A stretch of 64,000 nucleotides of DNA, taken from an uncultured Gammaproteobacteria bacterium (GTDB lineage Bacteria; Patescibacteriota; Microgenomatia; Daviesbacterales; UBA10151). Numbering within the stretch: position 1 is the first letter of the stretch; every line of letters starts with the position of its first letter. The translations under genes were made by a program, and so were the position numbers. Shown one piece after another: positions 4,013-47,893 of this stretch. The notes below the pieces were generated by a model that saw nothing but the letters and a program-made list of their open reading frames with translations, did no database searches and was not told the DNA's origin. The stretch is from contig CAYLXC010000002.1 in NCBI GenBank assembly GCA_964387865.1, forward strand, positions 18,676 to 82,675, given 5' to 3'.

Positions 4013-6214
4013 ATGAAAATAGTTATTTCAATTTTTTGTCTGGCCACCATTTTAATTGTGATTTGGTTTAGAGACGGCAATATTATGGGGACAGCCGAAG
4101 ATAGCCTCATATTTTACAATATTTCCCGTTTCCTGCCGGAATCACAGTATGCCTGGATGGAGCACCCGGGACTTGGCAGAGTAACCGTACACTTAACTGC
4201 AGCTAGGCCAACTTATGAAGCGCTTAATTTTTTGCAAGTATTAGGTTTTCCTAATTATTTAATTCAGGCATTAACTTTTTGGTTTATCCTTGTTAGTGCG
4301 GGTTTAGGAGTTTATTTAACCGTTAAAGAATTTTTCCCTCAACTTCAAAATAGATATGTTCTGCTTTCAGTTTTATTCTACTTATTTAATCCCCTGTCTT
4401 TAGTAAATGTCTGGAATAGATTTTTATCGGATTACATCTTTGCTTTTGGCTTGCTGCCAATTGTAACTTTTATATTTATAAAGGGACTCAAGAAAAAGAA
4501 TTATCTTTGGAGTCTTGTTTTAGTTTTGGTACTCCCTCTCTATAGCTTTGCTTTTACTTACCTAGCATTCGACATTCTTTTATGGATATTCTTTTTTACT
4601 CTGACTTTGCTTTTCTTTGTAACCAATAAAGAATTAAATGCTCGAATATTTTATATTAAATATTTTTTTCTTACCCTTTTATTGTTTTCACTTACTAATC
4701 TTTGGTGGATCGGTCAGCTAATGAGTCTTAAGCTGTTTAAAAATATTCACTCATCGGTCCTTAATTTTGATATTTCCGGTAATTTAGACATTCTGGATGC
4801 CCTAAGCAAAAAAATGGGCAATCTATCCGACATCTTTAGACTGACAAATGCATCCTTTCTTAATGAAAATTCGCTTTGGTGGGTAAAAACTTTTCACTCG
4901 CTACCTTTTGTTATAATGCAATACCTGATCACATCTTTGATACTTTACTCAATTATTCGGGGTATTAGAAATAAGTCTGTATTAATTTTGGGTGGGTTAT
5001 TTTTTGTAAGCATATATTTGGCAAAAGGGATAAACCCCCCTTTCGGAGAATTGTATAAGTTAATTTTTACAAGCGTTCCATTTTTACAGGTCTTTCGCAA
5101 TCCTTTTGAAAAAGCATCGTTTATTTTAGCTTTATCGGCTACTCTATTAATAGGTTTTAGCGTATTCAACCTTGTTCGGCAACTTCCTAAAAAATTTGGA
5201 AATTTACTATATTTTGGTCTGTTGTGCTTTATTGTCTTAGTATGGGGTTTTCCGTTTTATACAGGATGGGTATTTACATCGCCGGATCCGCCAACAAATA
5301 ATTATAAGGTGGGATATAAAGTTAAAGTTCCTCATTATTATCATGAAGCTGATGGGTGGCTTAAAGGTAAGGGTGATAACTTCCGGTTTATTGGTTTTCC
5401 ACTGGGTGATGAAGGGATAACTTATAACTGGGAGAAAGGTTACTCAGGCGTAGAGCTTTCAACAGCTCTTTTTGCAACCCCGGGAATCTTACATAATACT
5501 GCAGTTCCATATTATCATGAGCTGGTTCCCCACATACAGAAGACCCTACTTTCTCAAGACAATTTCCTAAAGTTGGCAAACGTTTTAAATGTAAAATTTC
5601 TTTTTATCCGCCATGATATTGATTATAAGTTAAGGAAGATGGAAAATCCCGCTATCATTGATAAAAACTTTGCCGAAAGACAGAAGAATAATCAGATCAA
5701 AAAGGTTGCTAATTTTGGTCAGCTAAGTTTTTGGGAAAACATGCAATGGAAAGACAGGACTTTTTATCCTGGCAGAAGGATTGTGAAAAGTTCAAACGAT
5801 CAGCAAGTGTCGGAATTAACTGCTGTAGATGTGAATGAGGATGAAGTATTAATGGATGCAAAAAATATTCAAGCGTTAAATTCTGAGTCCGAGGTTAGTA
5901 TATCTTATGAAAAAATTAATCCTACCAGATATATTGTTCATGTTAAGAATGCGTCTCCTTTTATTTTAGTTTTTTCCGAGCTTTTCAACAACGCCTGGCA
6001 GGCATTTTATGAGGACAACAAACTTGACAAACATTTTAGAGTTAATTTCTATGCCAACGGATGGTATATTGAAAGAAGGGGAAATTATGATATTTTGATT
6101 GAATTTATCCCACAAAGATTACTTTTGGCAGGAGAAAAAATTTCATCTTTTTCATATGCTTCAGTCCTTTTGATATTATTTATTTATCTATTTAGAAAAA
6201 AATGGAAAGCATGA
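4013..6214 (+). CDS. Family-A large polytopic membrane protein (733 aa), YfhO/AftD-like GT-C glycosyltransferase candidate
   Basis: About 11 N-terminal TM helices. Conserved motifs 'AKGINPPFGE', 'FRNPFEKASF', 'NWEKGYSGVEL' and the C-terminal 'FSELFNNAWQAFY...FYANGWYIERRGNYDILIEFIPQ' followed by a terminal TM anchor. Paralogous to 37850, 41816, 44468 and 8..1555. Confidence 0.6.
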   Translation: MKIVISIFCLATILIVIWFRDGNIMGTAEDSLIFYNISRFLPESQYAWMEHPGLGRVTVHLTAARPTYEALNFLQVLGFPNYLIQALTFWFILVSAGLGVYLTVKEFFPQLQNRYVLLSVLFYLFNPLSLVNVWNRFLSDYIFAFGLLPIVTFIFIKGLKKKNYLWSLVLVLVLPLYSFAFTYLAFDILLWIFFFTLTLLFFVTNKELNARIFYIKYFFLTLLLFSLTNLWWIGQLMSLKLFKNIHSSVLNFDISGNLDILDALSKKMGNLSDIFRLTNASFLNENSLWWVKTFHSLPFVIMQYLITSLILYSIIRGIRNKSVLILGGLFFVSIYLAKGINPPFGELYKLIFTSVPFLQVFRNPFEKASFILALSATLLIGFSVFNLVRQLPKKFGNLLYFGLLCFIVLVWGFPFYTGWVFTSPDPPTNNYKVGYKVKVPHYYHEADGWLKGKGDNFRFIGFPLGDEGITYNWEKGYSGVELSTALFATPGILHNTAVPYYHELVPHIQKTLLSQDNFLKLANVLNVKFLFIRHDIDYKLRKMENPAIIDKNFAERQKNNQIKKVANFGQLSFWENMQWKDRTFYPGRRIVKSSNDQQVSELTAVDVNEDEVLMDAKNIQALNSESEVSISYEKINPTRYIVHVKNASPFILVFSELFNNAWQAFYEDNKLDKHFRVNFYANGWYIERRGNYDILIEFIPQRLLLAGEKISSFSYASVLLILFIYLFRKKWKA

Positions 6215-6420
6215 TTTATTGGTTAGTTTTAGGGATATTAATCGTTGCAGCTGCTTCTTTTAAAAAGAGAGCATCATTCTATCTTTCTTTAGCTTTTTAT
6301 CTTTTTATGGCTGGAGCAATACTTAGAATTATCGGTATAAATGATATAGCAGAGCTAATAATGAGGATAAGCCTTATAGGATGGTTAGTTGGACTAGGTC
6401 TATCTTTTAAGCAGTTGTGA
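6202..6420 (+). CDS. Small polytopic membrane protein (72 aa); partner of the family-A gene
   Basis: ATG overlaps the stop of 4013..6214 (ATGGAAAGCATGA). There are 2-3 TM helices. 'DIAELIMRISLIGWLVG' is similar to 'DIGEFIMRLSFIFLLVG' in the small protein at 41331. Confidence 0.4.
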   Translation: MESMIYWLVLGILIVAAASFKKRASFYLSLAFYLFMAGAILRIIGINDIAELIMRISLIGWLVGLGLSFKQL

Positions 6421-7968
6421 GAGTTTGTCTCTTGTAGTAGCGGTTGTGTCTATTAATTTATCAGTGCCTTCTAGCTGAAAGGTAAGTATATTTGTGAGAG
6501 ATATAGGTTGTTCCGGTAGCCCATGCTTAATTAAAGATTTTCCATCCGTCACGGCAGAAATTGATTCTTCAAAACTGCCTAAAGTTACCACTGATTTATA
6601 ATCAGCTAGGCCGTAAATAAGTTGTATTCTGGATGGAAAACCAAAAGTTAATACATTATGAACAATTTCTCCGTTCTCTCCTGTAAAATAAAATGCCAGT
6701 GGTCCTTTTGAAAAATCATCCTTTGAGAATTTTGGTATTTGTGACCAAATCTTATTACTTAACTGTTGATTTCTAACAGCCAACAGTTTGTTAAGGTAGC
6801 TACTAGTTGAAAAAAGATGAATTAGTGTTATTGTTAAAACAAGCAATAACATTATAAGCTTATTCTTTTTATCATGAACTATACTGATAAGAGCTGCTAG
6901 GAATAAGGAGAAACCCCCGGCAGAGATTATTAAATATCTATGAGTTGTGGGAAACATAAAGTTTGGGTCACGAATCCATGGTATTAAGAGAGGGAAAAGA
7001 GTCCAAAGTAGGGATATTATGAATATATCTGCAAGATAAGATTTTCTTTGTTTGATAACTAGCACTAGCCATACAATAATCAAAATCCCTCCAATTAGTG
7101 CAAATGGGATTTCAAACGTTCCTGAAAGATTTGGAATAAACATTCCCCCTATTTCTGCTAAGGCGTACAGCAAAAATTCGGACTGCCCATTTTGAATCAA
7201 TTTAAGACTTGATTCGACCCCTATTATCACTGTGGTTGCTATTCCTTTTGTTGAGGGTTTTATAGTTTGTTTATCCCAATCTGGGGATGAATATGTGGTA
7301 GTGCCTAGTAACAAAAATAGAAATATTAAAATTAACAATGATAATCTTAGGATTACTCTTTTCAATATTCGGGAATCACGATTATTAAGCAGCCAAAAAA
7401 GTTCTATGGAAATAATTAAAGGAACAAGACTGGTAGTTCTTATAGGTGAGCTAATTATGGTTGTATAAAAGAGGCTAGATGTTAGGATTAGTGATTTTAA
7501 TTTTGTATTTTCCCTCAATTTTATAAAAAAGTAAAGAAAAAAATTGAAAAAAGTTACTGTTAAATAAGAAGTCATATTGAAAACCCAATTTGTAGTTTCT
7601 AATCCGATGGGGGTGATAGAGAAAAAAAGAATGGCAAAAAAAGAAGCCAATTTATTTTTAGTAAGAAGGAGTGTAATGGGATAAAAAGAGAAAGATGCGA
7701 GGAGTCTCATTAAATAGGAGATGATATAATATGGTGCTGATTGGAAATCAAAAATTCTTGATAATAATCCCGTGGTGATATCTTGTGGACCATATAAGGT
7801 TTGAAAATATGTAAGGTGATTCCAAACTCCTTTTGAGAATATTCCTACCATTAATTCGTATCTCCATGCAGTTACCCAAAAATCTCCAAAAACAGCAAGA
7901 TTAAATGAAGGAAAGAAGACATACAGACTGGTAGATACTATTATGAGGATTGCTAAAAAATAATACAT
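6400..7968 (-). CDS. Polytopic membrane protein (522 aa), possible distant family-B/GT-C glycosyltransferase
   Basis: At least 10 predicted TM helices. After TM1 there is an 'AVFGDFWVTAW' motif that resembles the family-B 'GF..DDVW' acidic loop. The start overlaps the upstream methyltransferase's stop (TAATG). Confidence 0.4.
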   Translation of the reverse strand: MYYFLAILIIVSTSLYVFFPSFNLAVFGDFWVTAWRYELMVGIFSKGVWNHLTYFQTLYGPQDITTGLLSRIFDFQSAPYYIISYLMRLLASFSFYPITLLLTKNKLASFFAILFFSITPIGLETTNWVFNMTSYLTVTFFNFFLYFFIKLRENTKLKSLILTSSLFYTTIISSPIRTTSLVPLIISIELFWLLNNRDSRILKRVILRLSLLILIFLFLLLGTTTYSSPDWDKQTIKPSTKGIATTVIIGVESSLKLIQNGQSEFLLYALAEIGGMFIPNLSGTFEIPFALIGGILIIVWLVLVIKQRKSYLADIFIISLLWTLFPLLIPWIRDPNFMFPTTHRYLIISAGGFSLFLAALISIVHDKKNKLIMLLLVLTITLIHLFSTSSYLNKLLAVRNQQLSNKIWSQIPKFSKDDFSKGPLAFYFTGENGEIVHNVLTFGFPSRIQLIYGLADYKSVVTLGSFEESISAVTDGKSLIKHGLPEQPISLTNILTFQLEGTDKLIDTTATTRDKLSQLLKR

Positions 7969-8534: not shown

Positions 8535-8584
8535 GGTATTATTTAAATTTAGTAGATCATATAATATTAAGACATTTGTATAAA

Positions 8585-13821: not shown

Positions 13822-13833
13822 AGAGAGATTATA

Positions 13834-14631: not shown

Positions 14632-14683
14632 AATTCTAGTTCATAAAACTGAATATATCAAGTGTAGGTGATATACTAATACA
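14632..14683. promoter_or_regulatory. Divergent promoter region (transaldolase operon on -, heptose genes on +)
   Basis: 52-nt AT-rich spacer containing -10-like 'GATATACT' and 'GAATATAT' between divergent genes. Confidence 0.25.
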
Positions 14684-17628: not shown

Positions 17629-17721
17629 TATTTACATTTGCTGTTAGTAACAGTTATTATATGTGTCAAGTGCTCAAATGCAAGGATTATATCTTTGATT
17701 TTAAGTAATGCAATAATCATT

Positions 17722-18444: not shown

Positions 18445-18451
18445 AAATTAA

Positions 18452-20411: not shown

Positions 20412-20417
20412 ATTAAT

Positions 20418-35247: not shown

Positions 35248-35273
35248 AATATATTATAGTACACTAATTCGGT
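35248..35273. promoter_or_regulatory. Compact divergent promoter (family-B gene on -, RmlD-like gene on +)
   Basis: A 26-nt spacer containing 'TATATTATAGT' -10-like elements. Confidence 0.25.
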
Positions 35274-36167
35274 ATGATTAGAAAAGATAAAGATAAAAGG
35301 ATTTTACTTTTTGGAGGGAGTGGCTTAGTTGGCTCAAGGATTATAAAGCTCCTTAATAATCGTTTCCAAATAATTGCCCCCCCACATATGAAAGTGGATG
35401 TTACCCAAAGAGCCCAAGTAGATAAAATCATTGAACAGGTTTTGCCAGATCATATAATTTATGCTGTGGGTTTAACAAGTGTGGATAAAGCGGAAGAGAA
35501 TTCTAAATTGGCTTATTTATTAAACACAAAGGCACCCACTATGGTGGCCGAAAAGGCTAGTCAACTTCACATTCCAATACTTTATTTCTCAACAGATGCT
35601 GTTTTTGATGGAACAAAAAGCATCAGTCCTTATGAGGAAAGCGATAAGACTAACCCTATCTCAATGTATGGTAAATCAAAGCTTTTGGGTGAGCAAATGG
35701 TTCTGGCCCTTTCTGACAAAAATTGTGTAGTAAGAATTATTACGGTTTACTCACACGTCACAACTGAGAAAAGAGGCTTTGTTCAAGCTGTACTTGAGGC
35801 TTTATCAAAAGGAGAAAAATTTCAAGGAATTACAGATCAAATAATCAATCCGATCTATGTTGATGATATAGTAAAGGCCATATATCTTTTGATTAATAGT
35901 AAAAGCTTTGGCATATATCATTTAGGTGCAACAGATTATATTACAAACTATAATTTTATTAGGAAACTAGCCAAACACCTTAGTTTGGATGAGAAGCTGA
36001 TAGAAGGGATAACCTTTAAGGAATTTTTTAAAAATAAATTGGCAAAGAGAACCAAATATTGTTGGCTAGATACTTCTCTTTTCAGAAAAGAATTTGGTGA
36101 AAACGTCCTTCATACTGTGGATGAAAGCATCATGCTTTTTAAGAAAAATTTAAAGAGGCCATCTTGA
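35274..36167 (+). CDS. RmlD-like NAD(P)-dependent reductase/epimerase (paralog of 20418..21344)
   Basis: 'ILLFGGSGLVGSRIIKLL' and 'YGKSKLLGE' (YxxxK). 297 aa. Confidence 0.6.
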   Translation: MIRKDKDKRILLFGGSGLVGSRIIKLLNNRFQIIAPPHMKVDVTQRAQVDKIIEQVLPDHIIYAVGLTSVDKAEENSKLAYLLNTKAPTMVAEKASQLHIPILYFSTDAVFDGTKSISPYEESDKTNPISMYGKSKLLGEQMVLALSDKNCVVRIITVYSHVTTEKRGFVQAVLEALSKGEKFQGITDQIINPIYVDDIVKAIYLLINSKSFGIYHLGATDYITNYNFIRKLAKHLSLDEKLIEGITFKEFFKNKLAKRTKYCWLDTSLFRKEFGENVLHTVDESIMLFKKNLKRPS

Positions 36168-36885
36168 AGTGTTTAAATCTTTTAACTATCCCCCAAAGGT
36201 ACCAATAAATATATCTTGGTAACCATTTAAATAGTTTGAATTTAGATTTGCCAAAATGTCTTTCTTTCCAAATAGATGGGGTTTCTGTGATTTTATATCC
36301 CAAAAGATAAGCTTTGATTAAAATTTCCATGGCAAATTCCCAGCCCCCAAGGGATTGAATTTTTATTCTTTTTAAAACTTGCCTTCGATACATCTTATAT
36401 CCATTAGTTAAATCAGAAGTTGGAATACCAAGAAGGATGGGGGTAGTAAGTCCTGCAATTTTTGAGAGAATAGTTTTTATAAATCTTCCGCCTACTTGTT
36501 TCCCACCTTTTGAATAACGGGTAGCACAGACAATGTCAAAATCCCTCTTTGCCAGTTGATACATTTTATTGATAGTTTCTGGGTCATCAGCCAAATCTGC
36601 TGGCATAACCACAATAAATTCTCCCAAGCTTTCCATAAAACCAGTTTTAACAGCATTGATCAAACCACCACCCCAAGCATTCTTTACAAGCTTCACATTT
36701 GGAATTTTATTCTTAAGTTTTTTTATAACTGTTATTGTGTCGTCATTATCGAAATCATATACAATAATTACCTCATGTTCACTCTTTACAGCAGATTCCA
36801 AAGAATAAAGGAAGGCAGATATATTTGGACCCTCATTCAAAACAGGTACAATAATGCTGATTGGAAATTTTTGTTTAGTAAGCAT
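36139..36885 (-). CDS. GT2 polyprenyl-phosphate glycosyltransferase (DPM1/GtrB-like)
   Basis: 'ISIIVPVLNEGPNI', 'EVIIVYDFDNDDT', 'TNGYKMYRRQVL'. 248 aa. Confidence 0.7.
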   Translation of the reverse strand: MLTKQKFPISIIVPVLNEGPNISAFLYSLESAVKSEHEVIIVYDFDNDDTITVIKKLKNKIPNVKLVKNAWGGGLINAVKTGFMESLGEFIVVMPADLADDPETINKMYQLAKRDFDIVCATRYSKGGKQVGGRFIKTILSKIAGLTTPILLGIPTSDLTNGYKMYRRQVLKRIKIQSLGGWEFAMEILIKAYLLGYKITETPSIWKERHFGKSKFKLFKWLPRYIYWYLWGIVKRFKHFKMASLNFS

Positions 36886-36975
36886 AATCCCTATTAGTCT
36901 AGAATTATTTTATTTTTTAAACAAGAACCAATACAAAAAATTGCCAAAACAACATTGATATGATAGAAAAGGATT

Positions 36976-37842
36976 GTGAAAAAAGTTTCAGTTATTATAC
37001 CTACTTATAATAGTTGGAAGACGCTTAAAAGTTGTATTATATCTATTCAAAATCAAACTATTAAACCTAAGGAGATTATAGTTGTGGATAATGGATCAAC
37101 TGATGGGACTGCTCAAAAAGTAAAAAAACTTTTCACAAAGATCAAATTGATTACCCTAGATAAAAATACAGGGGTTACCGGTGGTAGAAATACTGGTATA
37201 AAAAGAGCTAACTCTATGTCAGATTATTTATTTTTTTTTGATCATGATATGGTGGCTGAAAAAGATATGCTTAAAGAATTAATAAAAGTGACAGATACGG
37301 ATACTAACATTGGGATTGTTACCCCAAAGATTTATTATTATGGGAAGAAAAAAAGAATTTGGTCAGCAGGAACGGGGATTAATCTTTGGACAGGACAAGT
37401 TTTATTCAGAGGGGGAGATGACCGTGCTCAATACGAGAGAGTGGAAGAAGTACAGGTTGCCCCAGCTGCAATTTTGGTGAGAAAAGAGGTTATTAAGAAA
37501 ATAGGCGGATTCGATAACAGATACTTTGCCACTTATGAAGATACAGATTTTTGTTTCCGTGCTAGGAAGATAGGTTTTAAGACATTTTATGTCCCAAAAG
37601 CAAGAGCTTATCATAAGTTATCTTGGGATCCAAAAGATGATGCTGCAAGAGTCTTGTCAAGATCTTACTGGGTTGGAAGAAATCGTGTAATTTTTATGAA
37701 GGATTTTGGTAAAAATTTTTTCATATTCCTTATGTTTTTGCCAATCTACTTTGTTTATTATTTATATGTAGCATTAAAAAATAAAAATATTGGAGGATGG
37801 TTTAAATTTATACAAGGCACAATTTACGGTTTTTTTACTTGA
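36976..37842 (+). CDS. GT2-family glycosyltransferase (GT-A, DXD)
   Basis: 'VSVIIPTYNSWKTLKSCIISIQNQT...EIIVVDNGSTDGT' and 'FFDHDM' (DXD). GTG start. Confidence 0.7.
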   Translation: MKKVSVIIPTYNSWKTLKSCIISIQNQTIKPKEIIVVDNGSTDGTAQKVKKLFTKIKLITLDKNTGVTGGRNTGIKRANSMSDYLFFFDHDMVAEKDMLKELIKVTDTDTNIGIVTPKIYYYGKKKRIWSAGTGINLWTGQVLFRGGDDRAQYERVEEVQVAPAAILVRKEVIKKIGGFDNRYFATYEDTDFCFRARKIGFKTFYVPKARAYHKLSWDPKDDAARVLSRSYWVGRNRVIFMKDFGKNFFIFLMFLPIYFVYYLYVALKNKNIGGWFKFIQGTIYGFFT

Positions 37843-37849
37843 AAAATAG

Positions 37850-40800
37850 ATGAGCTTAAGGATAAATATAACATTGCTGATACTCCTGCTCATTCCCACC
37901 TTGCTAGTCTTAATTTGGTTTAGACATGGTAATATTATGGCTACGGGGGAATCAGGAATTCCCTTCTATGATTTTAATATACAATTAAAAATTAACAAGG
38001 ATGCTTGGGCAGATTATACTCTAGGACATCCTACTAATATTGGTGTTGCTGCCACTCCTACGTACTGGTTCTTTGCAAGTTTGCAAAGCTTTGGAATTCC
38101 AGACTTCTTACTTCAAGCTTTTTTCTTTTGGTTGGTTTTAGTAATTTCCGGTATCAGTATTTTTTTATTATCCAAAGAACTTTTTAATAAATTAGATAGT
38201 AAATTTTTAATACTTGCTGTATTTTTTTATTGGTTTAACCCATTTGCCTTAGTTAACATTTGGAATAGATTTTTAAATAATTATTTTGTTTTTTATGCAT
38301 TTGTACCACTTGCGCTGCTTCTTTTCATAAAAGGGATCAGATTGCAAAGATATATTTATTCTATCTTGATAGGTCTTTTGTCTGCAATATTCTCTTATTC
38401 TCAAACATCTATGGCATTAAATGTAATATTTTGGTTAGTCCTATTTTATACCGCTATATTTTATATATTTGTAGAAAACAGCTGGATAAATAGATTCTTT
38501 ATAATTAAGTTTTTTATATTGACATTTATTTTTTGGTTTGTAGTTAATAGTTGGTGGATTAATCAAGTTTTTAATTATATATCATCAGGCAGTTTTGATG
38601 CTGTTTCTACAGGTTCCTTCACAGCAATTGGAAATTATCAAACATTCGCTAACTTAAGCGCAATACTTGGAAATATATCAGACCTAATTAGATTACGTCA
38701 TGACTATTTTTTTAACAATCCAGATATATCTTGGATAAAAATTTATAATTCCCCAATATTTACTTTATTTAATTTTTTTATGGCTATGCTAATTTCTATT
38801 CCCATCATTTTTATAAAAAATCGAGCAGTACTTTTTACTGGAGGATTATTTTTAATAGGTATTTTTTTAACTAAAGGTAATAATCCTCCTTTTGGTGAGA
38901 TCAATGACAGTGTGTTTTTGTTCTCCCCATTAATGCAGCTATTCAGAAATCCATTCGAGAAGTTTGGATTTATACTTGCTTTATCATCAACGCTTTTATT
39001 TATACAAGGCTCAAAATCTATATGCGATTTATTAAAAAATAAAGCCAGGGAACTATTTTATTTCTCTGTCGTTATAATAATTACTTTAGTTTGGGGAATA
39101 TCTTTTTGGACAGGTTCTGTATTCATAGGCGCAGAAAGACCAATCAATGATTCTAAGATAGGTTATCAGGTTAAGGTACCAGAGCATTACAAACAAGCAT
39201 CTGAATGGTTGAGATCCCAAAATGATGACTTTAGATTAATCGTTTTGCCAATAGGGGGGGAAGGGATAACTTATAAATGGGAAAAAGGTTATTCTGGGGT
39301 TGAATTAACTAATCAGTTGTTACCTAAAACTGCCATATCTTTTAGTACTAATATTCCGTTTTATGATGATGTTTCAAAAAATATTGAGAGATTATTTCTT
39401 ACAACAAACTTATTGCCATCCCTATCCAATGCACTAAACACAAAATATATATTATATAGACCAGATATAGACTGGGAGGTAAGGAAAATGAGAGATCCCA
39501 AAGTAGTACTCTCTAAATTGGAGGAAAAACAACAAAAAGGGGAATTAACAAAAGTTGCTCAATTTGGTGATTTGATTTTCTTTCAGATTACATCCAAGGA
39601 CAAAGAGGAGATTTATACAGCTAACACTACATTCTTAAGTTATTCAAAACCGAATATTTCTGATTTAGAATTCTCTCAAAGTAATTTGGTAATTAGTACG
39701 GGGAATAAAATAGATAAGATACCGAAAAATAAAATCGAGGGGGAAGTTATACACCCTAAGGCGCAATTTTTTTTAGATTATAAAAAAGAGCCTGTTTTTG
39801 AGATTAGACAAGATATTTTTCCGCATGTGGCAATTTTACCGAAACAAATAAGTTATCCTTTTGTTGTAATTAAAGATAGACTTAAGGAGGAAACCATTAA
39901 AGACAGAGAAGAATTATTGGAATATAGACTTGTTATTTTAGGAAAGAGATTGGTTGAGGCTAAGTTTTCAGCGGATTTAAATGATGAAGGCGGGATACGT
40001 ATAGCAATAGTTCATTACCATACACTTTTGGATAGGACAATTAGATTGCTTGAACAGCTTTATATGATTGATCAGGGAAATAAACAAGCTTCACTCCAAG
40101 GTAAGCTATACTTAATATTTTCAAGGCATGTTAAAGTTTTAGAAGATTTGCAAAATAGGTTTGGGCAAACTAGCAAAACAGGAGTAGAGGTAGAAAGTAC
40201 TTTAAAATTGCTAAAGACAAGTCTGATCCGAGCCCATATTTATCCCGCTTACGGTTTTTTGGAAGATTTAGAATTCCCGCTAAAAAGGAGAATGATATAT
40301 CATTTTGAAGTTAAAAAGAGCGGGGAATATGAGTTACTTTGGGATGAGAAGATATTGAATGGCTATTACAAAATATCTTCAGGCGATCAAATAGTGCTAC
40401 AAGTTGACGATGAACTTTCTAAAATGAATTTAAAAACTGATGGTAAAGGTCATGTCAGCTTAGGTAAAGTTTATTTTGAAGAAGGTAGTCACGAAATTGG
40501 ATTAAACTTGCCAGAGGAAATAAATCTTATAGAGGTTCCTTTAAGCATGAATTTTAAGGTTGATCATGGAAGTAAAGTTGATTACTTTCCGATCAAAAAT
40601 TACGATTCTTATTCAAGCTACAACATTAATTTTGATTATTGGATAAAAAAAGGCAATGGTGTTCAAATTTTAGTATACGATAAAAAGCCTGAAGATATAA
40701 TATCTACAACGAAGCCTCGTAAGGAGTCCGTAGTAGGACCGGATTTATATGATTATACACCTAAAAATTATTTTGGGTTGTTTAAACTATCTGAAGGTGC

Positions 40801-41338
40801 TGAAGAGGCAACTATTGCATTAGAAGTAATTCCTTGGAATGACTGCGAAACAATATTCTACTCTAACAGAAGGGAACGGTGCAAAACTGAGGATTTTAGG
40901 AGACCATACGATAAGACCACAGATGTTGATATCAGTAAACTGAGTGTAACGCGTAGCTTTTCTGATTTGCCAGTTTTAGTAAAAAAAGATCTAGTTGATA
41001 AATCTTTATCTCCCCAACACAAATTTAAGAAATTAGATACAACAACTTATCAGATAGAAATAAAGGAGGTCAAAAAACCCTTCTTTCTTGTTTTTTCCGA
41101 ATTGTTTGATCCGGGTTGGAGATTGATGGATACTGATGGAAAGATTTTAAATTATCAACACTTCTTGGCAAATGGTTATGCCAATGGTTGGTATATTGAT
41201 AGGATGGGTAATTTTCAAATAATCCTAAAATTTACTCCTCAAGATTTATTAAAATTGGGTGAAAAAATATCTTTCGTAGGAGTTTCTTTTGGATTAATAT
41301 TTGTAGCCTATGAAATTTGGTGGAGAAAAAATGCTTAA
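37850..41338 (+). CDS. Family-A large polytopic membrane protein (1162 aa), YfhO/AftD-like GT-C glycosyltransferase candidate with an expanded extracytoplasmic domain
   Basis: N-terminal 'IWFRHGNIMATGESG' (compare 4013 'IWFRDGNIMGTAEDS'). Motifs 'TKGNNPPFGE', 'FRNPFEKFGF', 'KWEKGYSGVEL' and C-terminal 'FSELFDPGWRL...LANGYANGWYIDRMGNFQIILKFTPQ' followed by a terminal TM. The roughly 430-aa excess over 4013 lies in the soluble region. Confidence 0.6.
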   Translation: MSLRINITLLILLLIPTLLVLIWFRHGNIMATGESGIPFYDFNIQLKINKDAWADYTLGHPTNIGVAATPTYWFFASLQSFGIPDFLLQAFFFWLVLVISGISIFLLSKELFNKLDSKFLILAVFFYWFNPFALVNIWNRFLNNYFVFYAFVPLALLLFIKGIRLQRYIYSILIGLLSAIFSYSQTSMALNVIFWLVLFYTAIFYIFVENSWINRFFIIKFFILTFIFWFVVNSWWINQVFNYISSGSFDAVSTGSFTAIGNYQTFANLSAILGNISDLIRLRHDYFFNNPDISWIKIYNSPIFTLFNFFMAMLISIPIIFIKNRAVLFTGGLFLIGIFLTKGNNPPFGEINDSVFLFSPLMQLFRNPFEKFGFILALSSTLLFIQGSKSICDLLKNKARELFYFSVVIIITLVWGISFWTGSVFIGAERPINDSKIGYQVKVPEHYKQASEWLRSQNDDFRLIVLPIGGEGITYKWEKGYSGVELTNQLLPKTAISFSTNIPFYDDVSKNIERLFLTTNLLPSLSNALNTKYILYRPDIDWEVRKMRDPKVVLSKLEEKQQKGELTKVAQFGDLIFFQITSKDKEEIYTANTTFLSYSKPNISDLEFSQSNLVISTGNKIDKIPKNKIEGEVIHPKAQFFLDYKKEPVFEIRQDIFPHVAILPKQISYPFVVIKDRLKEETIKDREELLEYRLVILGKRLVEAKFSADLNDEGGIRIAIVHYHTLLDRTIRLLEQLYMIDQGNKQASLQGKLYLIFSRHVKVLEDLQNRFGQTSKTGVEVESTLKLLKTSLIRAHIYPAYGFLEDLEFPLKRRMIYHFEVKKSGEYELLWDEKILNGYYKISSGDQIVLQVDDELSKMNLKTDGKGHVSLGKVYFEEGSHEIGLNLPEEINLIEVPLSMNFKVDHGSKVDYFPIKNYDSYSSYNINFDYWIKKGNGVQILVYDKKPEDIISTTKPRKESVVGPDLYDYTPKNYFGLFKLSEGAEEATIALEVIPWNDCETIFYSNRRERCKTEDFRRPYDKTTDVDISKLSVTRSFSDLPVLVKKDLVDKSLSPQHKFKKLDTTTYQIEIKEVKKPFFLVFSELFDPGWRLMDTDGKILNYQHFLANGYANGWYIDRMGNFQIILKFTPQDLLKLGEKISFVGVSFGLIFVAYEIWWRKNA

Positions 41339-41648
41339 GATAATTAAAATTAGTTTACCTTTGATTTGGTTTTCAGGGATTGTTTATCTTCTTATTAGCT
41401 CTTTAATTGAGAATCGTTTCCTTGAGGAATATATTTATTGGTTAGTTTTGATAGGCTTAATTTTTTTTATATGGTTATGGAAGAGAAACAGCAAATTTTC
41501 ATTGTATTCTTCTTTTACTCTATTTTTAATTTCTGCACTAATTGTGACCTTTGGTTTTAAAGATATCGGGGAATTTATAATGAGGTTAAGTTTTATTTTT
41601 TTGTTGGTAGGTTACATTCAATCATTGGTAGAGTATAAAAGGGAGTAG
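41331..41648 (+). CDS. Small 4-TM membrane protein (105 aa); partner of the family-A gene
   Basis: ATG overlaps the stop of 37850..41338 (ATGCTTAA). Four predicted TM helices. 'FKDIGEFIMRLSFIFLLVGY' is conserved with the ORF at 6202. Confidence 0.4.
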   Translation: MLKIIKISLPLIWFSGIVYLLISSLIENRFLEEYIYWLVLIGLIFFIWLWKRNSKFSLYSSFTLFLISALIVTFGFKDIGEFIMRLSFIFLLVGYIQSLVEYKRE

Positions 41649-41655
41649 TGTTTCG

Positions 41656-41826
41656 ATGAAAAGTAAATACTTATTTTCGGTATTTCTATTAGGTCTTCTC
41701 ATAAGTTTTGTCTCGCTAATTTTAGATCATCCAGGTTTTGCTTTGCGGATTGTTATTTACAATTACTTCATATTGAGTTTAGCGGTAGTAGTGTATATAT
41801 GGGAGATAAAGAAAAATGAAAAATAA
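41656..41826 (+). CDS. Very small membrane protein (56 aa, 2 TM), below the ORF-track length cutoff
   Basis: ATG at 41656 reads MKSKYLFSVFLLGLLISFVSLILDHPGFALRIVIYNYFILSLAVVVYIWEIKKNEK and stops at 41824..41826. It overlaps the start of 41816..44455 by 11 nt. Confidence 0.3.
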   Translation: MKSKYLFSVFLLGLLISFVSLILDHPGFALRIVIYNYFILSLAVVVYIWEIKKNEK

Positions 41827-44455
41827 TAAAATATTCCCAATTTTAATTTTGGCCATTTTCTTAATCTTTATTTACTGGAAGTGGTGGTTGCCCGGACCAA
41901 GGGTGGCTAATGATTTTTCGTTTACCTCCAATTCTTTACTTAAATCTTTAGCGGACTTTCCTTATGTATGGATGGAAAAAGCATCAGAGGGTTTAGGTGA
42001 ATATACTATTTTTACTCTTTGGTCTTATCCTTTAAATTTCATTTCCGGTGTTTTGGCAAATCTTGGTCTTGGTTTTGTTATACAAGAAAGGATTCTTTTT
42101 CTAATACCAATTTTACTATTTGGAGCATGGGGTATTTGGAGGCTTTTTGGAAAAGTAAATGTATCAAGTTATGCAAAACTTGTTGCTACTTTATTTTATT
42201 TAGCCAACACCTATATTCTGCTTTTAATTGATGGAGGACAATTTAATGTTGCTTTGGCGTACTCCTTTTTTCCAATAAGCTTTGTAGCTGTGGAGCAATC
42301 GGTCAAGGGAGGTTTGAGGAGTAAAATTTTGGCAGGTTTGATAGTATTCGTATTAGGATTTTTTGATATTAGATTTATTTATATCTTGTTTTTTTTAAGT
42401 TTCTTGCGGTTCTTATACCAGCCAACGAATATCCTGAGTTGGATAAAAAGCGGGTTTTCTATTACCGTAATTTTGATGGGACTAAATGCTTATTGGCTTC
42501 TGCCTTACCTTAAGGTACCACTTTCTGAGACTACTTATGCTTTCTTAACAGAAACCTCTTCCATAAGTTTCACTAATTTGGGGCATGGAATTCTTCTTCT
42601 TGCGCCACATTGGCATAAGAATGTTTTTGGCCAAATTACCCCTTTAAGATGGGAGTTTATGTTTATACCAATCTTAGTTTTTCTTGCTCCAATCTTAGGG
42701 AAAAGAAGTAATAAGATCGGTTTTTGGCTTTTGGTGGCCTTAATTTCTACTTTTTTAGTTAAGGGTACCTCTGAACCTTTTACTCAAGTTTATCTGTGGC
42801 TTTTTCACAACCTGCCAGGTTTTTCATTATTTCGAGACCCTAGCAAATTTTTCTTTTTAGTAACTCTGTCGTATAGCGTCTTAATGGCTATATCTTTGGA
42901 TGTGATTATAAAAAAATTGGCTCATTGGTCAAAAATTAAATTTTTATTCATATCATCAGTAATTTTTTATCTAATTTTTCTTGTTAGGCCAGTGTGGCTA
43001 GGGCAGATGACTGGAACATTTTCTCAGCCTCTTTTTGAGAAAGAATATTCTCAACTAGATCAAATTTTGGCACAAGATCAGAAATTTAGTCGCGTATTTT
43101 GGATGCCTACTATTGCACCTTTAACCCGGCAAATTTTAGAACATCCTTCTTTAGAAGCTGCCCGTTTAGTCGGCAAAAGGCCTTTTGCCGTTGGAACTGT
43201 CGGTACATATGAAACATTTAATTTTTTAAGAGAAGCTCCCTTTATGGGAGAAATTTTTGATGTGGCTGGTATAGGTTATATAGCATATCCCTATCTCGAT
43301 AAAAGAAGAGATAATTTACACTCAGATAATATTAGATATTATTATACTTTCTCAGATCAATTATCTAAACTTTCTTGGTTAGCAAAAGTAGATAATGTAC
43401 CAATGCCTTTATGGAAAGTCAGCCAGCATCAAGGTAAGTTTTTTATTACCCCCAATGTATGGTGGATTATAGGATCAGACAGTATTTACAATGAGGCAAC
43501 TAAAAGTGCTCAACTTAAACTTTTCAAGAACGCTTTAATATTTACTGAAGAACGTGCAGGATTAGGAAAGAGATTAGATGAATTACCACAGGCAAAAGTT
43601 GTCCTCAACCGTAAGACTTTGATTGATTTTGCCGCCAGCTTTATTGACCCATCAAGAATAATCTTTCCAGCAAGGAATCTTGGAGTTAGTCCTGATCAAT
43701 CAGGGTGGTGGAAGAGGGAAGCTAAAGATTTGATAAGCTGGAGAGATTTCCTGCAAGCCGAATATGGCATAGATAATTTGGATTTTGATTTAGGTGGAGG
43801 TTGGGCTGTAGGAGAGGGAAATTTAAAATTAAAAGTTAAAAGTGAAAAATTAAAGCAAAAACAGGTTTTATTGGTTCGAACCCTTGAAAGTACTCGGAGC
43901 GGACAATTAAGTTTTTATCAAGATGATAAATTAATTGGACAAATAAATACCAGAAAAGAAGGAAATAATGTTAGGTGGTTTGAGGTAGGCCAGCTGATCG
44001 AAGATGGCGAACTGATAATGAAATCAGAAGGTGATATTAATGTGGTTAATGCATTAGCTGTGTTAGATAAAAAGGAGTGGATTGTAATTCAAAATAAAGC
44101 AAAGGAAAAACAAAATAGAATTGCTAATTTTGATGAGAAGAATACTCAACAAGCTCTCCCAAGTGTGACATATCAGCAAATAAATTCTACTAAATATAGA
44201 GTCTCCATCAATAACTTGACTCAACCAAGTTTTATTGTTTTTTCTCAAAGTTATGACAATGGCTGGAAAATGGATGGTGAAAAATCACTACCGGCTTATA
44301 GTCTGCTTAATGGATTTAGAATAGAGAAAGATGGTACTTATGAGGTAAGGTTTGTACCTCAGAGCTGGGTTTATCCAGGTCTAATAATATCAGGGATCTC
44401 CTTTTTTGTTCTAATAGTTGTTTTAACTATGTCCAAAGTTAGAAGTAGGAGCTGA
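41816..44455 (+). CDS. Family-A large polytopic membrane protein (879 aa), divergent YfhO/AftD-like GT-C candidate
   Basis: 'VKGTSEPFTQ', 'FRDPSKFFF' and C-terminal 'FSQSYDNGWKMDGEK...LLNGFRIEKDGTYEVRFVPQ' followed by a terminal TM. The most diverged member of family A. Confidence 0.55.
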   Translation: MKNNKIFPILILAIFLIFIYWKWWLPGPRVANDFSFTSNSLLKSLADFPYVWMEKASEGLGEYTIFTLWSYPLNFISGVLANLGLGFVIQERILFLIPILLFGAWGIWRLFGKVNVSSYAKLVATLFYLANTYILLLIDGGQFNVALAYSFFPISFVAVEQSVKGGLRSKILAGLIVFVLGFFDIRFIYILFFLSFLRFLYQPTNILSWIKSGFSITVILMGLNAYWLLPYLKVPLSETTYAFLTETSSISFTNLGHGILLLAPHWHKNVFGQITPLRWEFMFIPILVFLAPILGKRSNKIGFWLLVALISTFLVKGTSEPFTQVYLWLFHNLPGFSLFRDPSKFFFLVTLSYSVLMAISLDVIIKKLAHWSKIKFLFISSVIFYLIFLVRPVWLGQMTGTFSQPLFEKEYSQLDQILAQDQKFSRVFWMPTIAPLTRQILEHPSLEAARLVGKRPFAVGTVGTYETFNFLREAPFMGEIFDVAGIGYIAYPYLDKRRDNLHSDNIRYYYTFSDQLSKLSWLAKVDNVPMPLWKVSQHQGKFFITPNVWWIIGSDSIYNEATKSAQLKLFKNALIFTEERAGLGKRLDELPQAKVVLNRKTLIDFAASFIDPSRIIFPARNLGVSPDQSGWWKREAKDLISWRDFLQAEYGIDNLDFDLGGGWAVGEGNLKLKVKSEKLKQKQVLLVRTLESTRSGQLSFYQDDKLIGQINTRKEGNNVRWFEVGQLIEDGELIMKSEGDINVVNALAVLDKKEWIVIQNKAKEKQNRIANFDEKNTQQALPSVTYQQINSTKYRVSINNLTQPSFIVFSQSYDNGWKMDGEKSLPAYSLLNGFRIEKDGTYEVRFVPQSWVYPGLIISGISFFVLIVVLTMSKVRSRS

Positions 44456-44467
44456 TATAATGAAATC

Positions 44468-47400
44468 ATGCTTAAATCTGGTGTTCTATTTTTACTTATT
44501 GCCTTAGTTTTAGTCACAATTTGGTTTAGACAGGGATTAATCTTTGGTGGAGCAGAGGTAGGCATACTTACCTATAATCCTAAAAGGTTTTTGGAGATAC
44601 AACAGTACATTTGGTGGGGTGCTGTAGCCCCTGGGATGCTTGTTCCTCACTTTACTACTGGTGTTCCCCTTTACCTTGTATTGTCTCTAATACAAGGTAT
44701 ATTTTCTCTGGTGATTTTACAAGCTGGAATTTTTTTCTGCTTACTCTTTCTGATGGGTTACGGAATGTATCTTTTCTCTCTTGCCATATTTGGTACAGAT
44801 AAGAAACTTTATGCCCTACTGGCTGGAATTTTTTACATGTTTAATTCCTATACAGTAGTTGAGATCTGGCACCGCTTTTTATATACCGGTTTTTTCCTTG
44901 CTGCCTTTCTGCCTTTCTTTGCTCTTTTTTGGAAGAAGTGGATAAATAAGGGTCAATTCTTATTTTTAGTTCTTTTTCTGCTGACTAGTTTAATCTCTTC
45001 TTACATGTTTGGAAATTTAGCGTCTATCTTGACTGTGTGGTTACTGATACTGCTTATTACTATTTCTGATGCAATTTTTCCTTTAAGAAAAAATGAACTA
45101 ATTAAAATAGGTTTGAGATTCTTTTTAGGAGTTTTTTTCTGGTTGGTTACTAATGTTTGGTGGTTAATTCCTGTTTTAGGAGTTTCAACAGGTTTACTAC
45201 CTGAGCAACATTCCAGCGAAGACAACATCAATACTTTAATAAATATAGGCAAACAAACAATACTTCCCTTTACGCTTCAGTTTGCTAACCCTTTCTATCT
45301 TTTTTACACTGCTGAGCTGGGACAAATTTACAACAGTTTATTTTTTAAAATTCTTCCTTGGATTCCAACTATAATTATTTTTAGTGGTCTTTTAGCTGCC
45401 TTTAAACAAAAAAATTTGGCCAAATTTTCACTGATTTATCTTTTAGTAATAATATTTTCCAAGGGGCCCACTTCACCTTTTGGTTACCCTTATATATGGA
45501 GTTTTATGAACATTTATGCCTTAGGAGTGATAAGGAATCCCTTTGAGAAATTAGGAATTTTGTTACCCTTTTTTGGCAGTATTCTTTTTGTAGTAGGAGT
45601 GACTTTGGTTTACTCTTGGGGTATTAAAAAAATTGGATTATTAGGTTCCAGATTTTTAATTGCTGTAAGTTTATTATCCATATTAGTTTATGCTTGGCCT
45701 ATGTTTACAGGTAAGGTGATTAGTAAACCCTTGGAGCCGTTACAAGTTAGTATCCCGTCTTATTACAAACAAGCAGATGATTTTCTTAAAAATCAGATAG
45801 AAAAAGAAGGCAATATCTTGCACTTACCTTTTTCAGGAAGAGATGTAGTTACCTACAATTGGCAAAATGGTTACCATGGAGTTGATATAAATCAAATTTT
45901 ATTTAGCTCTTCGCCTTCCATATCCAGAAACATGGGGCTTAAAAGAGTAGATGATACTTTAAAAAGCCTGACTTTAGTATTTAGTAACCCCCTTTCAAAA
46001 AAAGAGGATTTAGTCATAAGACTTTTACAAGATCTGAATGTTAAATTTATAGTACTCCATAAAGAGGTAAAATGGACAGATATATCTACTTATGGCAAAG
46101 ATATTAGGTTGATTAATCCTCAAGAAATCGAAGCGACTTTAAACGGTTATGACTTTTTAGAGAGACAAATAAGTTTTGGAGATTTAATTATTTATAAGCT
46201 GAAAGATAATTCTTTTAAAGGCAAAATTGCCTTCTCTGAGACTGCCAGCTTAGTTTATCCGGGAGAAAGTAGTTATCTGCAAATAAATACATTTACTGAT
46301 AAAGACAATATAATTACAACTCAAAGTAATAATCTTTCTGAACAAACTTTATCAAAAATTAAAGATATTTTTCTCTTTCCAGAAAGTAGCCTAAATTATT
46401 CGGTAGCTTCTGAGAGCGCCATAATAGATTTGATAAACAATCATGATTCCTTGATAAATCAGTTAACCTTTATGAAAAATTATTTTTCCCAAACAGGGCT
46501 ATTGATGAGTGAGGAGTTAACAGAAAAGATTTTAAAAGCAACCGAAAAATTACTTAAAATTTCTAACTCAGGATTGATATCATTTGAGACTTATGAGAAT
46601 TCACTGAATGATATATTTAAAAATAATTTTAAAGATATAAGTCTATTAAAACTATTTAAGTCCCAAATAATTAATACTTTTTATCTGCATTCGTATATTC
46701 TAGAAAAATCGAGTAAAGGGCATTCTGCGAGGAAAATTTTAATGGAGGGTTTAAAGGAGAATGATTTGTTACCCCTTTACTTACAATCCAATATTATATC
46801 TGAGGAGGAAATAAATAAGAGAATAGCTCGATTTAAAGTTCCGTTCAAATCAAAGTATGAAATTTTAATAGTTCCTCCTAGGATTGCAGATTTATACGCT
46901 GATTTTTTACCTAAATTAGATGTTCGAGTAAATGATAACACTTTAGAAACTAAAGGTAAACTGGATAAAAATATTATTTCATTTGGAGAGTTTGATTTTG
47001 ATGAAAATACATATGAAATAAGTTACAATTCACTCCTTTCATTTAATTTATTACCTTCCATTGATAAAATCTTAAAGATGGGAAATGTAGAGCTTAAGGA
47101 AGGTAGTGTACATCTAATCTCTGGCGAGCAAGAGATAGCTTATTTAGAAGCTCCTTTGAGGGGAGTTAGTGGCAATGATGTCTACAATATTACCTTTGAT
47201 GTGTTATTTGAGATGGGAAATGAGTTTTATATAGAAATAATGCAAGAGAGTGAAGACTTCGATAACCAAAAGGAATATCAAACAATTCAATCAAATGAAT
47301 GTTTTGTGCATACTTGTTATCCCATAAAATTAGATCCTAGTAAAAGTGGTTGGCAAAAATATTCTCTTTTGACATCGCCTCTAAATCCTATCAGTCAAAG

Positions 47401-47893
47401 AGCAAATTTTAGAATTATAGTATTTTCCAAATTTGAAAATTCTCAAAAAATCCATGGAGATATTTTCATTAAAAACTTACAAGTAAACAAAGTCTTTGAT
47501 GGAGAAGTCGTTTTAAGAAAGAAAGTATCGAAAAGCTTAGGAAATTCCTCAGGCGAGCTAATTACCATAAATCATCAAACACCAATATCTTATTTTGGGA
47601 AAATTAAATTAAATCAACCTTCATTTCTTCTGTTTAAAGAGACCTTTCACCCTGGATGGAGTTTAACACTTACCCAAGGTGATAACCTTTATAAGATAGA
47701 TAAACACTTTATGGGCAATCTATATGCTAACTCTTATTTTATAGAAAAAGTAGGAGAGTATGATTTTAAACTTGAATTTGAACCGCAAAAGGGGGTAGTG
47801 AGGGGACTTTTGATAACACTGTTAGGATGGGTTATCGTACTTATGATTTTTATTTGGTCACAATTCAGAGGGAGAAAGTATGAAAGAGACTAA
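44468..47893 (+). CDS. Family-A large polytopic membrane protein (1141 aa), YfhO/AftD-like GT-C glycosyltransferase candidate
   Basis: 'IWFRQGLIFGGAEVG', 'SKGPTSPFGYPY', 'IRNPFEKLGI', 'NWQNGYHGVDI' and C-terminal 'FKETFHPGWSL...LYANSYFIEKVGEYDFKLEFEPQ' followed by a terminal TM. Confidence 0.6.
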   Translation: MLKSGVLFLLIALVLVTIWFRQGLIFGGAEVGILTYNPKRFLEIQQYIWWGAVAPGMLVPHFTTGVPLYLVLSLIQGIFSLVILQAGIFFCLLFLMGYGMYLFSLAIFGTDKKLYALLAGIFYMFNSYTVVEIWHRFLYTGFFLAAFLPFFALFWKKWINKGQFLFLVLFLLTSLISSYMFGNLASILTVWLLILLITISDAIFPLRKNELIKIGLRFFLGVFFWLVTNVWWLIPVLGVSTGLLPEQHSSEDNINTLINIGKQTILPFTLQFANPFYLFYTAELGQIYNSLFFKILPWIPTIIIFSGLLAAFKQKNLAKFSLIYLLVIIFSKGPTSPFGYPYIWSFMNIYALGVIRNPFEKLGILLPFFGSILFVVGVTLVYSWGIKKIGLLGSRFLIAVSLLSILVYAWPMFTGKVISKPLEPLQVSIPSYYKQADDFLKNQIEKEGNILHLPFSGRDVVTYNWQNGYHGVDINQILFSSSPSISRNMGLKRVDDTLKSLTLVFSNPLSKKEDLVIRLLQDLNVKFIVLHKEVKWTDISTYGKDIRLINPQEIEATLNGYDFLERQISFGDLIIYKLKDNSFKGKIAFSETASLVYPGESSYLQINTFTDKDNIITTQSNNLSEQTLSKIKDIFLFPESSLNYSVASESAIIDLINNHDSLINQLTFMKNYFSQTGLLMSEELTEKILKATEKLLKISNSGLISFETYENSLNDIFKNNFKDISLLKLFKSQIINTFYLHSYILEKSSKGHSARKILMEGLKENDLLPLYLQSNIISEEEINKRIARFKVPFKSKYEILIVPPRIADLYADFLPKLDVRVNDNTLETKGKLDKNIISFGEFDFDENTYEISYNSLLSFNLLPSIDKILKMGNVELKEGSVHLISGEQEIAYLEAPLRGVSGNDVYNITFDVLFEMGNEFYIEIMQESEDFDNQKEYQTIQSNECFVHTCYPIKLDPSKSGWQKYSLLTSPLNPISQRANFRIIVFSKFENSQKIHGDIFIKNLQVNKVFDGEVVLRKKVSKSLGNSSGELITINHQTPISYFGKIKLNQPSFLLFKETFHPGWSLTLTQGDNLYKIDKHFMGNLYANSYFIEKVGEYDFKLEFEPQKGVVRGLLITLLGWVIVLMIFIWSQFRGRKYERD

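Follow-up and report, generated by a model that had tools for sequence, protein, structure and literature searches.

The 64-kb stretch of contig CAYLXC010000002.1 analysed here (64,000 nucleotides (nt), hereafter the window) belongs to a Candidatus Daviesbacteria bacterium of the Microgenomates, within the Candidate Phyla Radiation (CPR)/Patescibacteria, and carries five genes for large membrane proteins, designated A1 to A5 in window order and all located on the plus strand, which together make up family A. It is likely that these five genes encode integral-membrane glycosyltransferases that possess a GT-C fold and belong to the lineage of AftD (PF11847, DUF3367), an essential mycobacterial enzyme, and that their products glycosylate a surface glycan in a polyprenyl-phosphate-sugar-dependent manner. 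Fold, motifs and gene context are shown by the analysis and are described before the proposed mechanism. The window is densely coding, with a GC content of 30-34%, and the five open reading frames (ORFs; lengths in amino acids, aa) are as follows.

2..1555, plus strand (ORF 8..1555, partial, frame open from base 2): A1, the C-terminal 517 aa of a 699-aa AftD-like GT-C protein (PF11847)
4013..6214, plus strand: A2, a 733-aa AftD-like GT-C protein (PF11847 at 22 bits, below cut-off; orthologs; BLASTP)
37850..41338, plus strand: A3, a 1162-aa AftD-like GT-C protein (PF11847; structure model)
41816..44455, plus strand: A4, a divergent 879-aa GT-C protein with CBM6/35-like beta-sandwiches and a C-terminal anchor (structure model; no Pfam match)
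44468..47893, plus strand: A5, a 1141-aa AftD-like GT-C protein with the domain order of A3 (BLASTP to A3; no Pfam match)

Homology, architecture and the relationship to AftD

A sequence-only reading of this DNA had proposed that the five ORFs are paralogs sharing a series of ordered motifs, and alignment of the five copies bears out their homology and their coordinates. BLASTP related A2 to A3 with an E-value of 9e-137 (589 residues at 38% identity, with a further segment at the C-terminus), A3 to A5 over the full length with 5e-50, A2 to A5 with 2e-44 and A1 to A2 with 3e-22. A4 is the outlier of the five, with E-values of 8e-12 to 8e-6; a profile-profile comparison (hhalign) of an alignment of A2/A3/A5-type proteins (56 sequences) with one of A4-type proteins (49 sequences) returned a probability of 100 and an E-value of 8e-40 over 794 columns. 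By these comparisons the five family-A proteins are homologous to one another, well beyond chance. Motif comparison and multiple alignment placed the motifs collinearly and at matching positions in A1, A2, A3 and A5, although literal matches are few: KG..PPFG, FRNPFEK and WEKGYSGVEL occur as such in A2 and A3 only, the N-terminal motif (IWFR.GNI.G..E) in A1, A2 and A3, with L in place of N in A5, and the C-terminal motif as originally written fits A3 only. A1 and A5 contain degenerate forms of most motifs, such as LRNSYEK, W-GYVGED and IRNPFEK, and A4 retains only KGTSEPFT, FRDPSK and a weak C-terminal GW...LLNGF.

The start of A1 lies 544 nt upstream of the window and the full-length protein, read from the parent contig of 163 kb (L001:5444-7543), is 699 aa, so that family A spans 699-1162 aa rather than the 733-1162 aa given before; A2 is the shortest complete copy bearing a C-terminal anchor. 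Hydropathy and structure models agree with the architecture that had been read from the sequence, namely approximately 11 N-terminal transmembrane (TM) helices, a large soluble domain and, in four of the five copies, a single C-terminal TM helix. The claim of a terminal anchor in all five fails for A1, which ends in '...KVWPWD*' and is followed, 9 nt past its stop codon, by a convergent methyltransferase gene; its ortholog in another genome (L021:9980-12061) is likewise devoid of a C-terminal TM helix. Insertions in the soluble region account for the variation in length, as had been suggested, since A3 and A5 have an inserted helical bundle in addition to beta-sandwiches.

AlphaFold models built from alignments were obtained for A3 (predicted local distance difference test (pLDDT) 89, predicted template-modelling score (pTM) 0.84) and A4 (pLDDT 86.5, pTM 0.84). 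Both present TM1, a first external loop and some ten further TM helices with helical external loops, followed by an alpha/beta soluble domain, beta-sandwich modules and a single long C-terminal helix; they thus display the multi-TM core plus extracytoplasmic domain by which membership of the GT-C superfamily is recognised. In the models an acidic residue of the first external loop sits approximately 10 residues past the TM1 helix, this being E34 in 55/55 A2/A3/A5-type sequences and D33 in all 49 A4-type sequences. The beta-sandwich modules resemble carbohydrate-binding modules (CBMs), as judged from fold matches to CBM-type sandwiches (CBM6/35-like in A4), and Pfam returned no match for either the A3/A5 insertion or the C-terminal modules of A4. 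The parts of A3 are located as follows.

aa 1-421 (37850-39112): TM domain
aa 440-645 (39167-39784): GT-C soluble domain
aa 669-794 (39854-40231): helical-bundle insertion of five helices, before the sandwiches
aa 814-1128 (40289-41233): beta-sandwich modules
aa 1130-1161 (41237-41332): C-terminal TM helix
E34, R140, N233, K342, R366, E370, K371, E485, D539: conserved residues

Kinship with AftD had been suggested from the sequence, and it is upheld by the Pfam family GT-C_AftD (PF11847), which matches A1 (31.3 bits) and A3 (31.1 bits) above the cut-off of 26, and by Foldseek, with which AftD emerged as the best fold match. The closest solved structure is AftD (PDB 6w98, 6wbx and 6wby), at an E-value of 2.2e-17 as against 1e-5 for the next GT-C protein, and aligned over 690 residues as against 457 for proteins of the STT3/PglB/AglB type; identity to AftD is 10-14%. 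Of the five mutually homologous copies, PF11847 reaches its cut-off in A1 and A3 only, and many A2 orthologs carry a precomputed PF11847 match.

AftD comprises TM1-11, a periplasmic GT-C domain, three CBMs, a sandwich domain and TM12, followed by a separate bundle, TM13-16, which binds acyl carrier protein (ACP), and its essential residues are K39, D41, E251, K361 and D474 (Tan et al., bioRxiv 10.1101/2019.12.22.885152). For a residue-level comparison an approximate Mycobacterium AftD sequence was stitched from frameshifted pieces of contigs L047 and L046, in which the TM13-16 region is broken by frameshifts and the essential residues stand in the contexts DTK39LD41, FIE251SSG, RNMHK361 and HD474E475P. 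The family profile aligned collinearly with the first 600 residues of this approximate AftD (499 columns, E 2.3e-4), in the same region as the Pfam ranges and the sub-threshold PDB alignment. WEKGYSGVE485L falls on the AftD W-G-SSHD474E475P loop, and position 485, the counterpart of AftD E475, is acidic (E or D) in 56/56 family members; YRPD539ID falls on AftD VRNDLD, and the C-terminal PGW...NG.ANGW on AftD NPGW...VNGWQQGW. The likeness of this C-terminal motif to AftD-like enzymes, which the sequence-only reading had extended to YfhO, accordingly stands for AftD; for YfhO it is not supported. In the alignment of 56 A2/A3/A5-type sequences E34, R140, N233, R366, E370 and K371 are invariant and K342 and D539 nearly so. 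Among the 49 A4-type sequences D33, K316, R340/D341 and K344 are invariant, further invariant or near-invariant charged residues are D139, D184/R186, E466 and R472/E473, and E447, conserved in at least 90%, lies in a stretch that hhalign aligns to the E485 loop.

Several results weigh against this relationship or against a conserved catalytic centre. A2 scores 22.0 bits with PF11847, below the cut-off, and A4 and A5 gave no Pfam match; sequence profiles run against the PDB placed AftD below significance (E 0.6) or returned nothing, a single-sequence search with full-length A1 yielded noise only, and hhalign of the family profile against the single stitched AftD reached a probability of only 44.5. 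At the residue level, the position of AftD D474 is occupied by V, A or I, with valine the commonest of the three, and as position 250 is variable, E251 is left with no conserved equivalent. FRNPFEK (K371) resembles AftD LRNMHK361, with a register that may be off by one and for which hhalign gives a different offset, and E34 lies within two residues of AftD K39/D41 in an ambiguous correspondence. On alignment, therefore, none of the five essential AftD residues, but only the neighbour E475, appears to have a firmly aligned conserved counterpart, E485. In addition, the named protein closest to A4 is MmpA, for which catalytic activity has not been demonstrated (PMC8698533). For the fold and several motifs the link to AftD is thus firm; for the catalytic residues it is incomplete.

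Distribution and age of the duplications

The closest relatives of A2 and A4 are encoded by genomes of Candidatus Daviesbacteria and of the 'Patescibacteria group', with A2 orthologs of up to 73% identity in Daviesbacteria, some A2 relatives being named 'alpha-(1->3)-arabinofuranosyltransferase family protein' or 'DUF3367 domain-containing protein'. A4 relatives carry no precomputed Pfam domain, and the A4-type subfamily comprises more than 100 clusters at 90% identity which Pfam does not recognise. A profile search of 1.84 billion cluster representatives retrieved 10,785 proteins at E<=1e-3, of which 2,532 also reach E<=1e-30, corresponding to a family of approximately 10,800 clusters at 50% identity. 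The 41 loci obtained by scanning one genome per species all belong to Daviesbacteria, Woesebacteria, Amesbacteria or unclassified Patescibacteria. Records titled 'uncultured Gammaproteobacteria' (L005, L008-L010, L014, L016, L019, L020 and others) share long syntenic blocks of Microgenomates type, and these titles look like placeholder or wrong taxonomy.

The paralogs of the window are mutually 21-38% identical, and for each of them orthologs elsewhere outscore any in-genome paralog two- to twenty-fold, as exemplified by A4, with orthologs at 486-1067 bits versus approximately 50 bits for its best in-genome paralog. About half of the related loci have a large A3-type gene followed within 200-500 base pairs by an A4-type gene, and this pair of a large copy and an A4-type gene recurs in Daviesbacteria, Woesebacteria and Amesbacteria. 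The closer orthologs elsewhere and the recurring pair imply, from sequence comparison, that the duplications are old and common to the Microgenomates and not recent events in this genome, contrary to the lineage-specific expansion that had been read from the tandem arrangement. Gene order is A3, A4, A5 in the window as compared to A3-type, A5-type, A4-type in two Daviesbacteria (L002 and L003), where the array reads GT2, large copy, mini-gene, large copy, mini-gene, A4-type gene and Wzx, followed by GT2, methyltransferase, GT2, GT4, GT2 and PMT_2; the mini-genes are described below. L002 also has an extra, unannotated 500-aa gene on the opposite strand. Other Daviesbacteria genomes (L031-L037, L040-L042) contain a sixth family-A subtype of approximately 885-920 aa, solitary and devoid of a mini-gene, which has no counterpart in the window.

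CPR/Patescibacteria, most of them uncultured, have tiny genomes, and to our knowledge their surface chemistry is essentially unknown; that in such a genome an island of 64 kb is given over to the synthesis of a surface glycan, and that the AftD lineage reaches the Microgenomates in a minimal 12-TM form, is of use for annotation and for work on AftD. The A4-type subfamily, which is invisible to Pfam, and the conserved mini-proteins coupled to these enzymes are likewise of value for annotation. Given the size of the family and the labels that databases already give to part of it, the core finding extends known biology and is only moderately new. A search of the literature on DUF3367 or AftD-like/GT-C enzymes in CPR bacteria found nothing relevant in the library that was covered.

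Small partner genes and the glycan-synthesis island

The new feature here is a set of mini-protein and micro-gene families coupled to the GT-C genes. The mini-genes (70-146 aa, 3-4 TM) overlap or abut the stop codon of A2/A3/A5-type genes, and the micro-genes overlap the start codon of A4-type genes; A1 has no partner mini-gene. Small genes of these two families also occur in L002, L003 and about 30 further loci. Those of the window are the following.

6202..6420, plus strand: mini-gene, 72 aa, 3 TM, overlapping the A2 stop by 13 nt; 40% identity to 41310-41648
41310..41648, plus strand: mini-gene, 112 aa, 4 TM, overlapping the A3 stop by 29 nt; conserved family, no Pfam match
41656..41826, plus strand: micro-gene, 56 aa, 2 TM, motif H-P-G-F-A-L-R, overlapping the A4 start by 11 nt
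47880..48221, plus strand: mini-gene, 113 aa, 4 TM, overlapping the A5 stop by 14 nt; second subtype, ending in ...KRxxIEKF

Occurrence of a mini-ORF downstream was counted in the fetched loci, by class of large gene.

A3/A5-type, at least 1075 aa: 29/31
Family A, 850-1075 aa, A4-type excluded: 5/17
Family A, below 850 aa, A4-type excluded: 4/12
A4-type: 0/19

BLAST joins the 39 distinct mini-proteins into a single cluster, in which orthologs share 25-45% identity; composition correction was switched off in this comparison, so that its E-values are generous. They match no Pfam or NCBIfam family, and the GtrA profile (PF04138) found no match in 30 members even at E<=1. Micro-ORFs of 49-70 aa with 2 TM helices and the motif H-x-G-F-A-x-R overlap the A4-type start codon in at least 10 loci and match no known family. 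No fusion of a large protein to a mini-protein ('Rosetta-stone') was present among 436 collected proteins. Most large copies are translationally coupled to a conserved mini-protein of 3-4 TM helices, which is probably a subunit. As to its role, replacement in trans of the AftD TM13-16 bundle and a GtrA-like function as flippase or adaptor are ideas only. Taken jointly, it is possible, though we hold it doubtful, that AftD-like enzymes operate here as two-subunit machines with a mini- or micro-protein partner which replaces TM13-16 or delivers the polyprenyl-phosphate sugar, in an island with at least 14 transferases. Were this so, a single 64-kb island would equip a bacterium of small genome with at least 14 extracytoplasmic lipid-sugar transferases, with which it would build a very elaborate surface glycan.

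The window as a whole is one large glycan-synthesis island, and from 36976 to 63849 all genes are co-directional and separated by gaps of at most 39 nt or overlapping. Beside family A, the island contains the following.

36139..36885, minus strand: GT2, 248 aa, candidate polyprenyl-phosphate sugar synthase for a lipid-linked donor (Glycos_transf_2; PDB matches)
36976..37842, plus strand: GT2, 288 aa, 7 nt upstream of A3 (generic GT2 matches)
48208..49485, plus strand: Wzx-like polysaccharide flippase, following the family-A block here and in related genomes
60962-62383: Wzy_C / O-antigen-ligase-like membrane protein, from the array that also holds the Wzx-like flippase
52679-54055, 54783-56222 and 62386-63849: three PMT_2-type (ArnT/PMT-like) GT-C proteins, in the same co-directional array
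13834-17628: GDP-glycero-manno-heptose-like route (transaldolase/FSA, HAD phosphatase, nucleotidyltransferase, SIS-domain protein, GHMP kinase)
6400-7968 (minus), 22131-24002 (plus), 24027-25892 (plus), 25897-27744 (minus), 27778-29709 (plus) and 33340-35247 (minus): family B, six polytopic membrane proteins

The best solved match of the GT2 at 36139-36885 is the Pyrococcus Dol-P-Man synthase (PDB 5mlz; 1.4e-25, residues 5-243, almost the whole catalytic domain), GtrB and ArnC coming next, and the position of the GT2 at 36976-37842 is kept in related genomes. Four small GT2s of 236-268 aa (17638-18444, 21334-22077, 36139-36885 and 50982-51692) are mutually related, and the three that were compared with the PDB gave Dol-P-Man synthase, GtrB or ArnC as best matches; several distinct polyprenyl-phosphate sugar donors may thus be made in the island. 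The presence of Wzx-like and Wzy_C-like proteins in one array points to a Wzx/Wzy-type polymer pathway. The heptose-like route, of which the SIS-domain protein (15980-16579) is known from a precomputed SIS_2 match only, suggests heptose in the surface glycan. Many S-adenosylmethionine-dependent methyltransferases, GT2 and GT4 enzymes, UDP-sugar dehydrogenases, RmlD-like reductases, a DegT aminotransferase and a sugar C-methyltransferase complete the island.

Family B consists of six paralogous proteins of 522-643 aa, related by BLASTP at 1e-112 to 1e-5, the weakest values involving 6400-7968. These proteins gave no Pfam match and one non-significant NCBIfam match (E 0.003), and each has 'G-F..D-D/D.D-W' just after TM1, resembling a GT-C first-loop motif. 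A relation of family B to family A was considered and rejected, hhalign detecting none (probability 3.6). From its sequence features family B could be an unannotated GT-C family; counted with the five family-A and the three PMT_2 proteins, it brings the 64-kb window to at least 14 GT-C-like membrane proteins.

This context accommodates a mechanism in which donor, acceptor and the catalytic role of residues are our proposals. At the cytoplasmic face, the Dol-P-Man-synthase/GtrB-like GT2s encoded in the island would attach a sugar to polyprenyl phosphate, the lipid-linked sugar would be flipped to the outer leaflet, and each paralog would then pass the sugar to the growing cell-surface glycan outside the membrane. 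Three loops would make up the active site: the first external one (E34, or D33 in A4-type proteins), that of RNPFEK and, in the soluble domain, that of W..GY.GV[E/D]. Different parts of the acceptor would be held by the beta-sandwich and helical modules, which vary among the copies, and we therefore propose that the five old paralogs differ in the step or linkage that they catalyse; that they have diversified in donor or acceptor is plausible.

Alternative functions and comparison with known systems

An alternative, albeit improbable, is that some or all copies, A4 above all, have a GT-C fold but no catalytic activity and act as scaffolds or in lipid handling. The model for such a role is corynebacterial MmpA, a helper in trehalose-lipid export for which transferase activity has not been demonstrated; it is reported to share partial homology with the first 668 residues of AftD and to lack recognisable catalytic domains (PMC8698533). 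A4 lacks WEKGYSGVEL as written, and its only curated family match is the NCBIfam MmpA profile (NF053599; 1.4e-10, residues 286-387), which matched none of the other four copies. Because MmpA is itself partly AftD-homologous, however, this match points to the same superfamily, and its score of 40.4 bits against a cut-off of 210 means that A4 is not a member of the MmpA family. Moreover, the many invariant or near-invariant charged residues kept in A4-type proteins, among them E447 aligned to the E485 loop, and the CBM6/35-like modules of A4, which suit glycan binding, argue for an enzyme. MmpA (NCgl2761/Rv0226c of Corynebacterium/Mycobacterium) is polytopic and its profile is matched by A4 across KG...PF / FRDP..K, but it measures only 474-576 aa, has no CBM-like modules and serves trehalose-mycolate export, and no mycolate or trehalose-lipid context occurs in this CPR genome.

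The Wzx-like flippase adjoining the family-A block would be in keeping with oligosaccharyltransferases of the STT3/PglB/AglB type, which move a lipid-pyrophosphate-linked glycan en bloc onto protein (an S-layer or pilin, for example), yet we judge this quite improbable for family A. The catalytic subunits of oligosaccharyltransferases carry as their hallmark a WWD (WWDYG-type) motif in the soluble domain, and none of the five copies has a WWD motif. The far better Foldseek E-value and longer alignment obtained with AftD, the Pfam match to GT-C_AftD and not to STT3, and CBM-like modules that point to a glycan acceptor argue in the same direction. Not only STT3/PglB/AglB but also AftA, Pmt, ALG9/ALG12 and ArnT gave shorter alignments and have different soluble domains.

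That the five proteins are true functional orthologs of AftD, namely alpha-arabinofuranosyltransferases using decaprenyl-phosphate-arabinose, is very unlikely, despite the arabinofuranosyltransferase name that NCBI gives to some orthologs and despite AftD being the closest solved structure. Identity to AftD is as low as stated above, the ACP-binding TM13-16 bundle is absent and the Pfam CBM_AftD and F5/8-type-C modules were undetected. Arabinofuranose as donor has no support, as no Pfam match to a UbiA-type prenyltransferase or to a DprE1-type protein was found among the scanned window ORFs of at least 150 aa (that at 15980-16579 being covered by its precomputed match alone), and the sugar pathways of the island look like GDP-heptose, UDP-sugar dehydrogenase, RmlD-like and aminosugar routes. 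We give almost no credence to membership of the YfhO family, whose GT-C enzymes glycosylate lipoteichoic or wall teichoic acid and which had been half-suggested and has only the generic GT-C architecture in its favour, since PF09586 matched none of the five copies even at E<=1 and is not precomputed in the A2 and A4 orthologs listed.

The family-A proteins, as probable GT-C glycosyltransferases of the AftD lineage, share with AftD the GT-C fold, an N-terminal set of approximately 11 TM helices, an alpha/beta GT-C domain with beta-sandwiches and then a TM12-equivalent helix after it, and the motifs RN..K, W-G...[D/V]E, R.D.D and PGW...NGW. They differ in that AftD has 16 TM helices, whereas the family-A proteins stop after the equivalent of TM12 (A1 before it) and so have no TM13-16; in that the modules which Pfam finds in mycobacterial AftD (CBM_AftD and F5/8-type-C) are not detected in them; and in that A3 and A5 possess a helical-bundle insertion which AftD does not. 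Also unlike AftD, most large copies are coupled to a separate gene for a mini-protein of 3-4 TM helices.

Gtr-type glycan modification, which employs the small 4-TM flippase GtrA, the polyprenyl-phosphate GT2 GtrB and the GT-C transferase GtrC, offers a second comparison. The mini-proteins do not match GtrA and the GT-C proteins are AftD-like and not GtrC-like, so that the likeness is one of parts only; those parts are nevertheless all present in the island, in the form of a Dol-P-Man-synthase/GtrB-like GT2, a GT-C transferase and, nearby, a 4-TM protein of approximately 110 aa.

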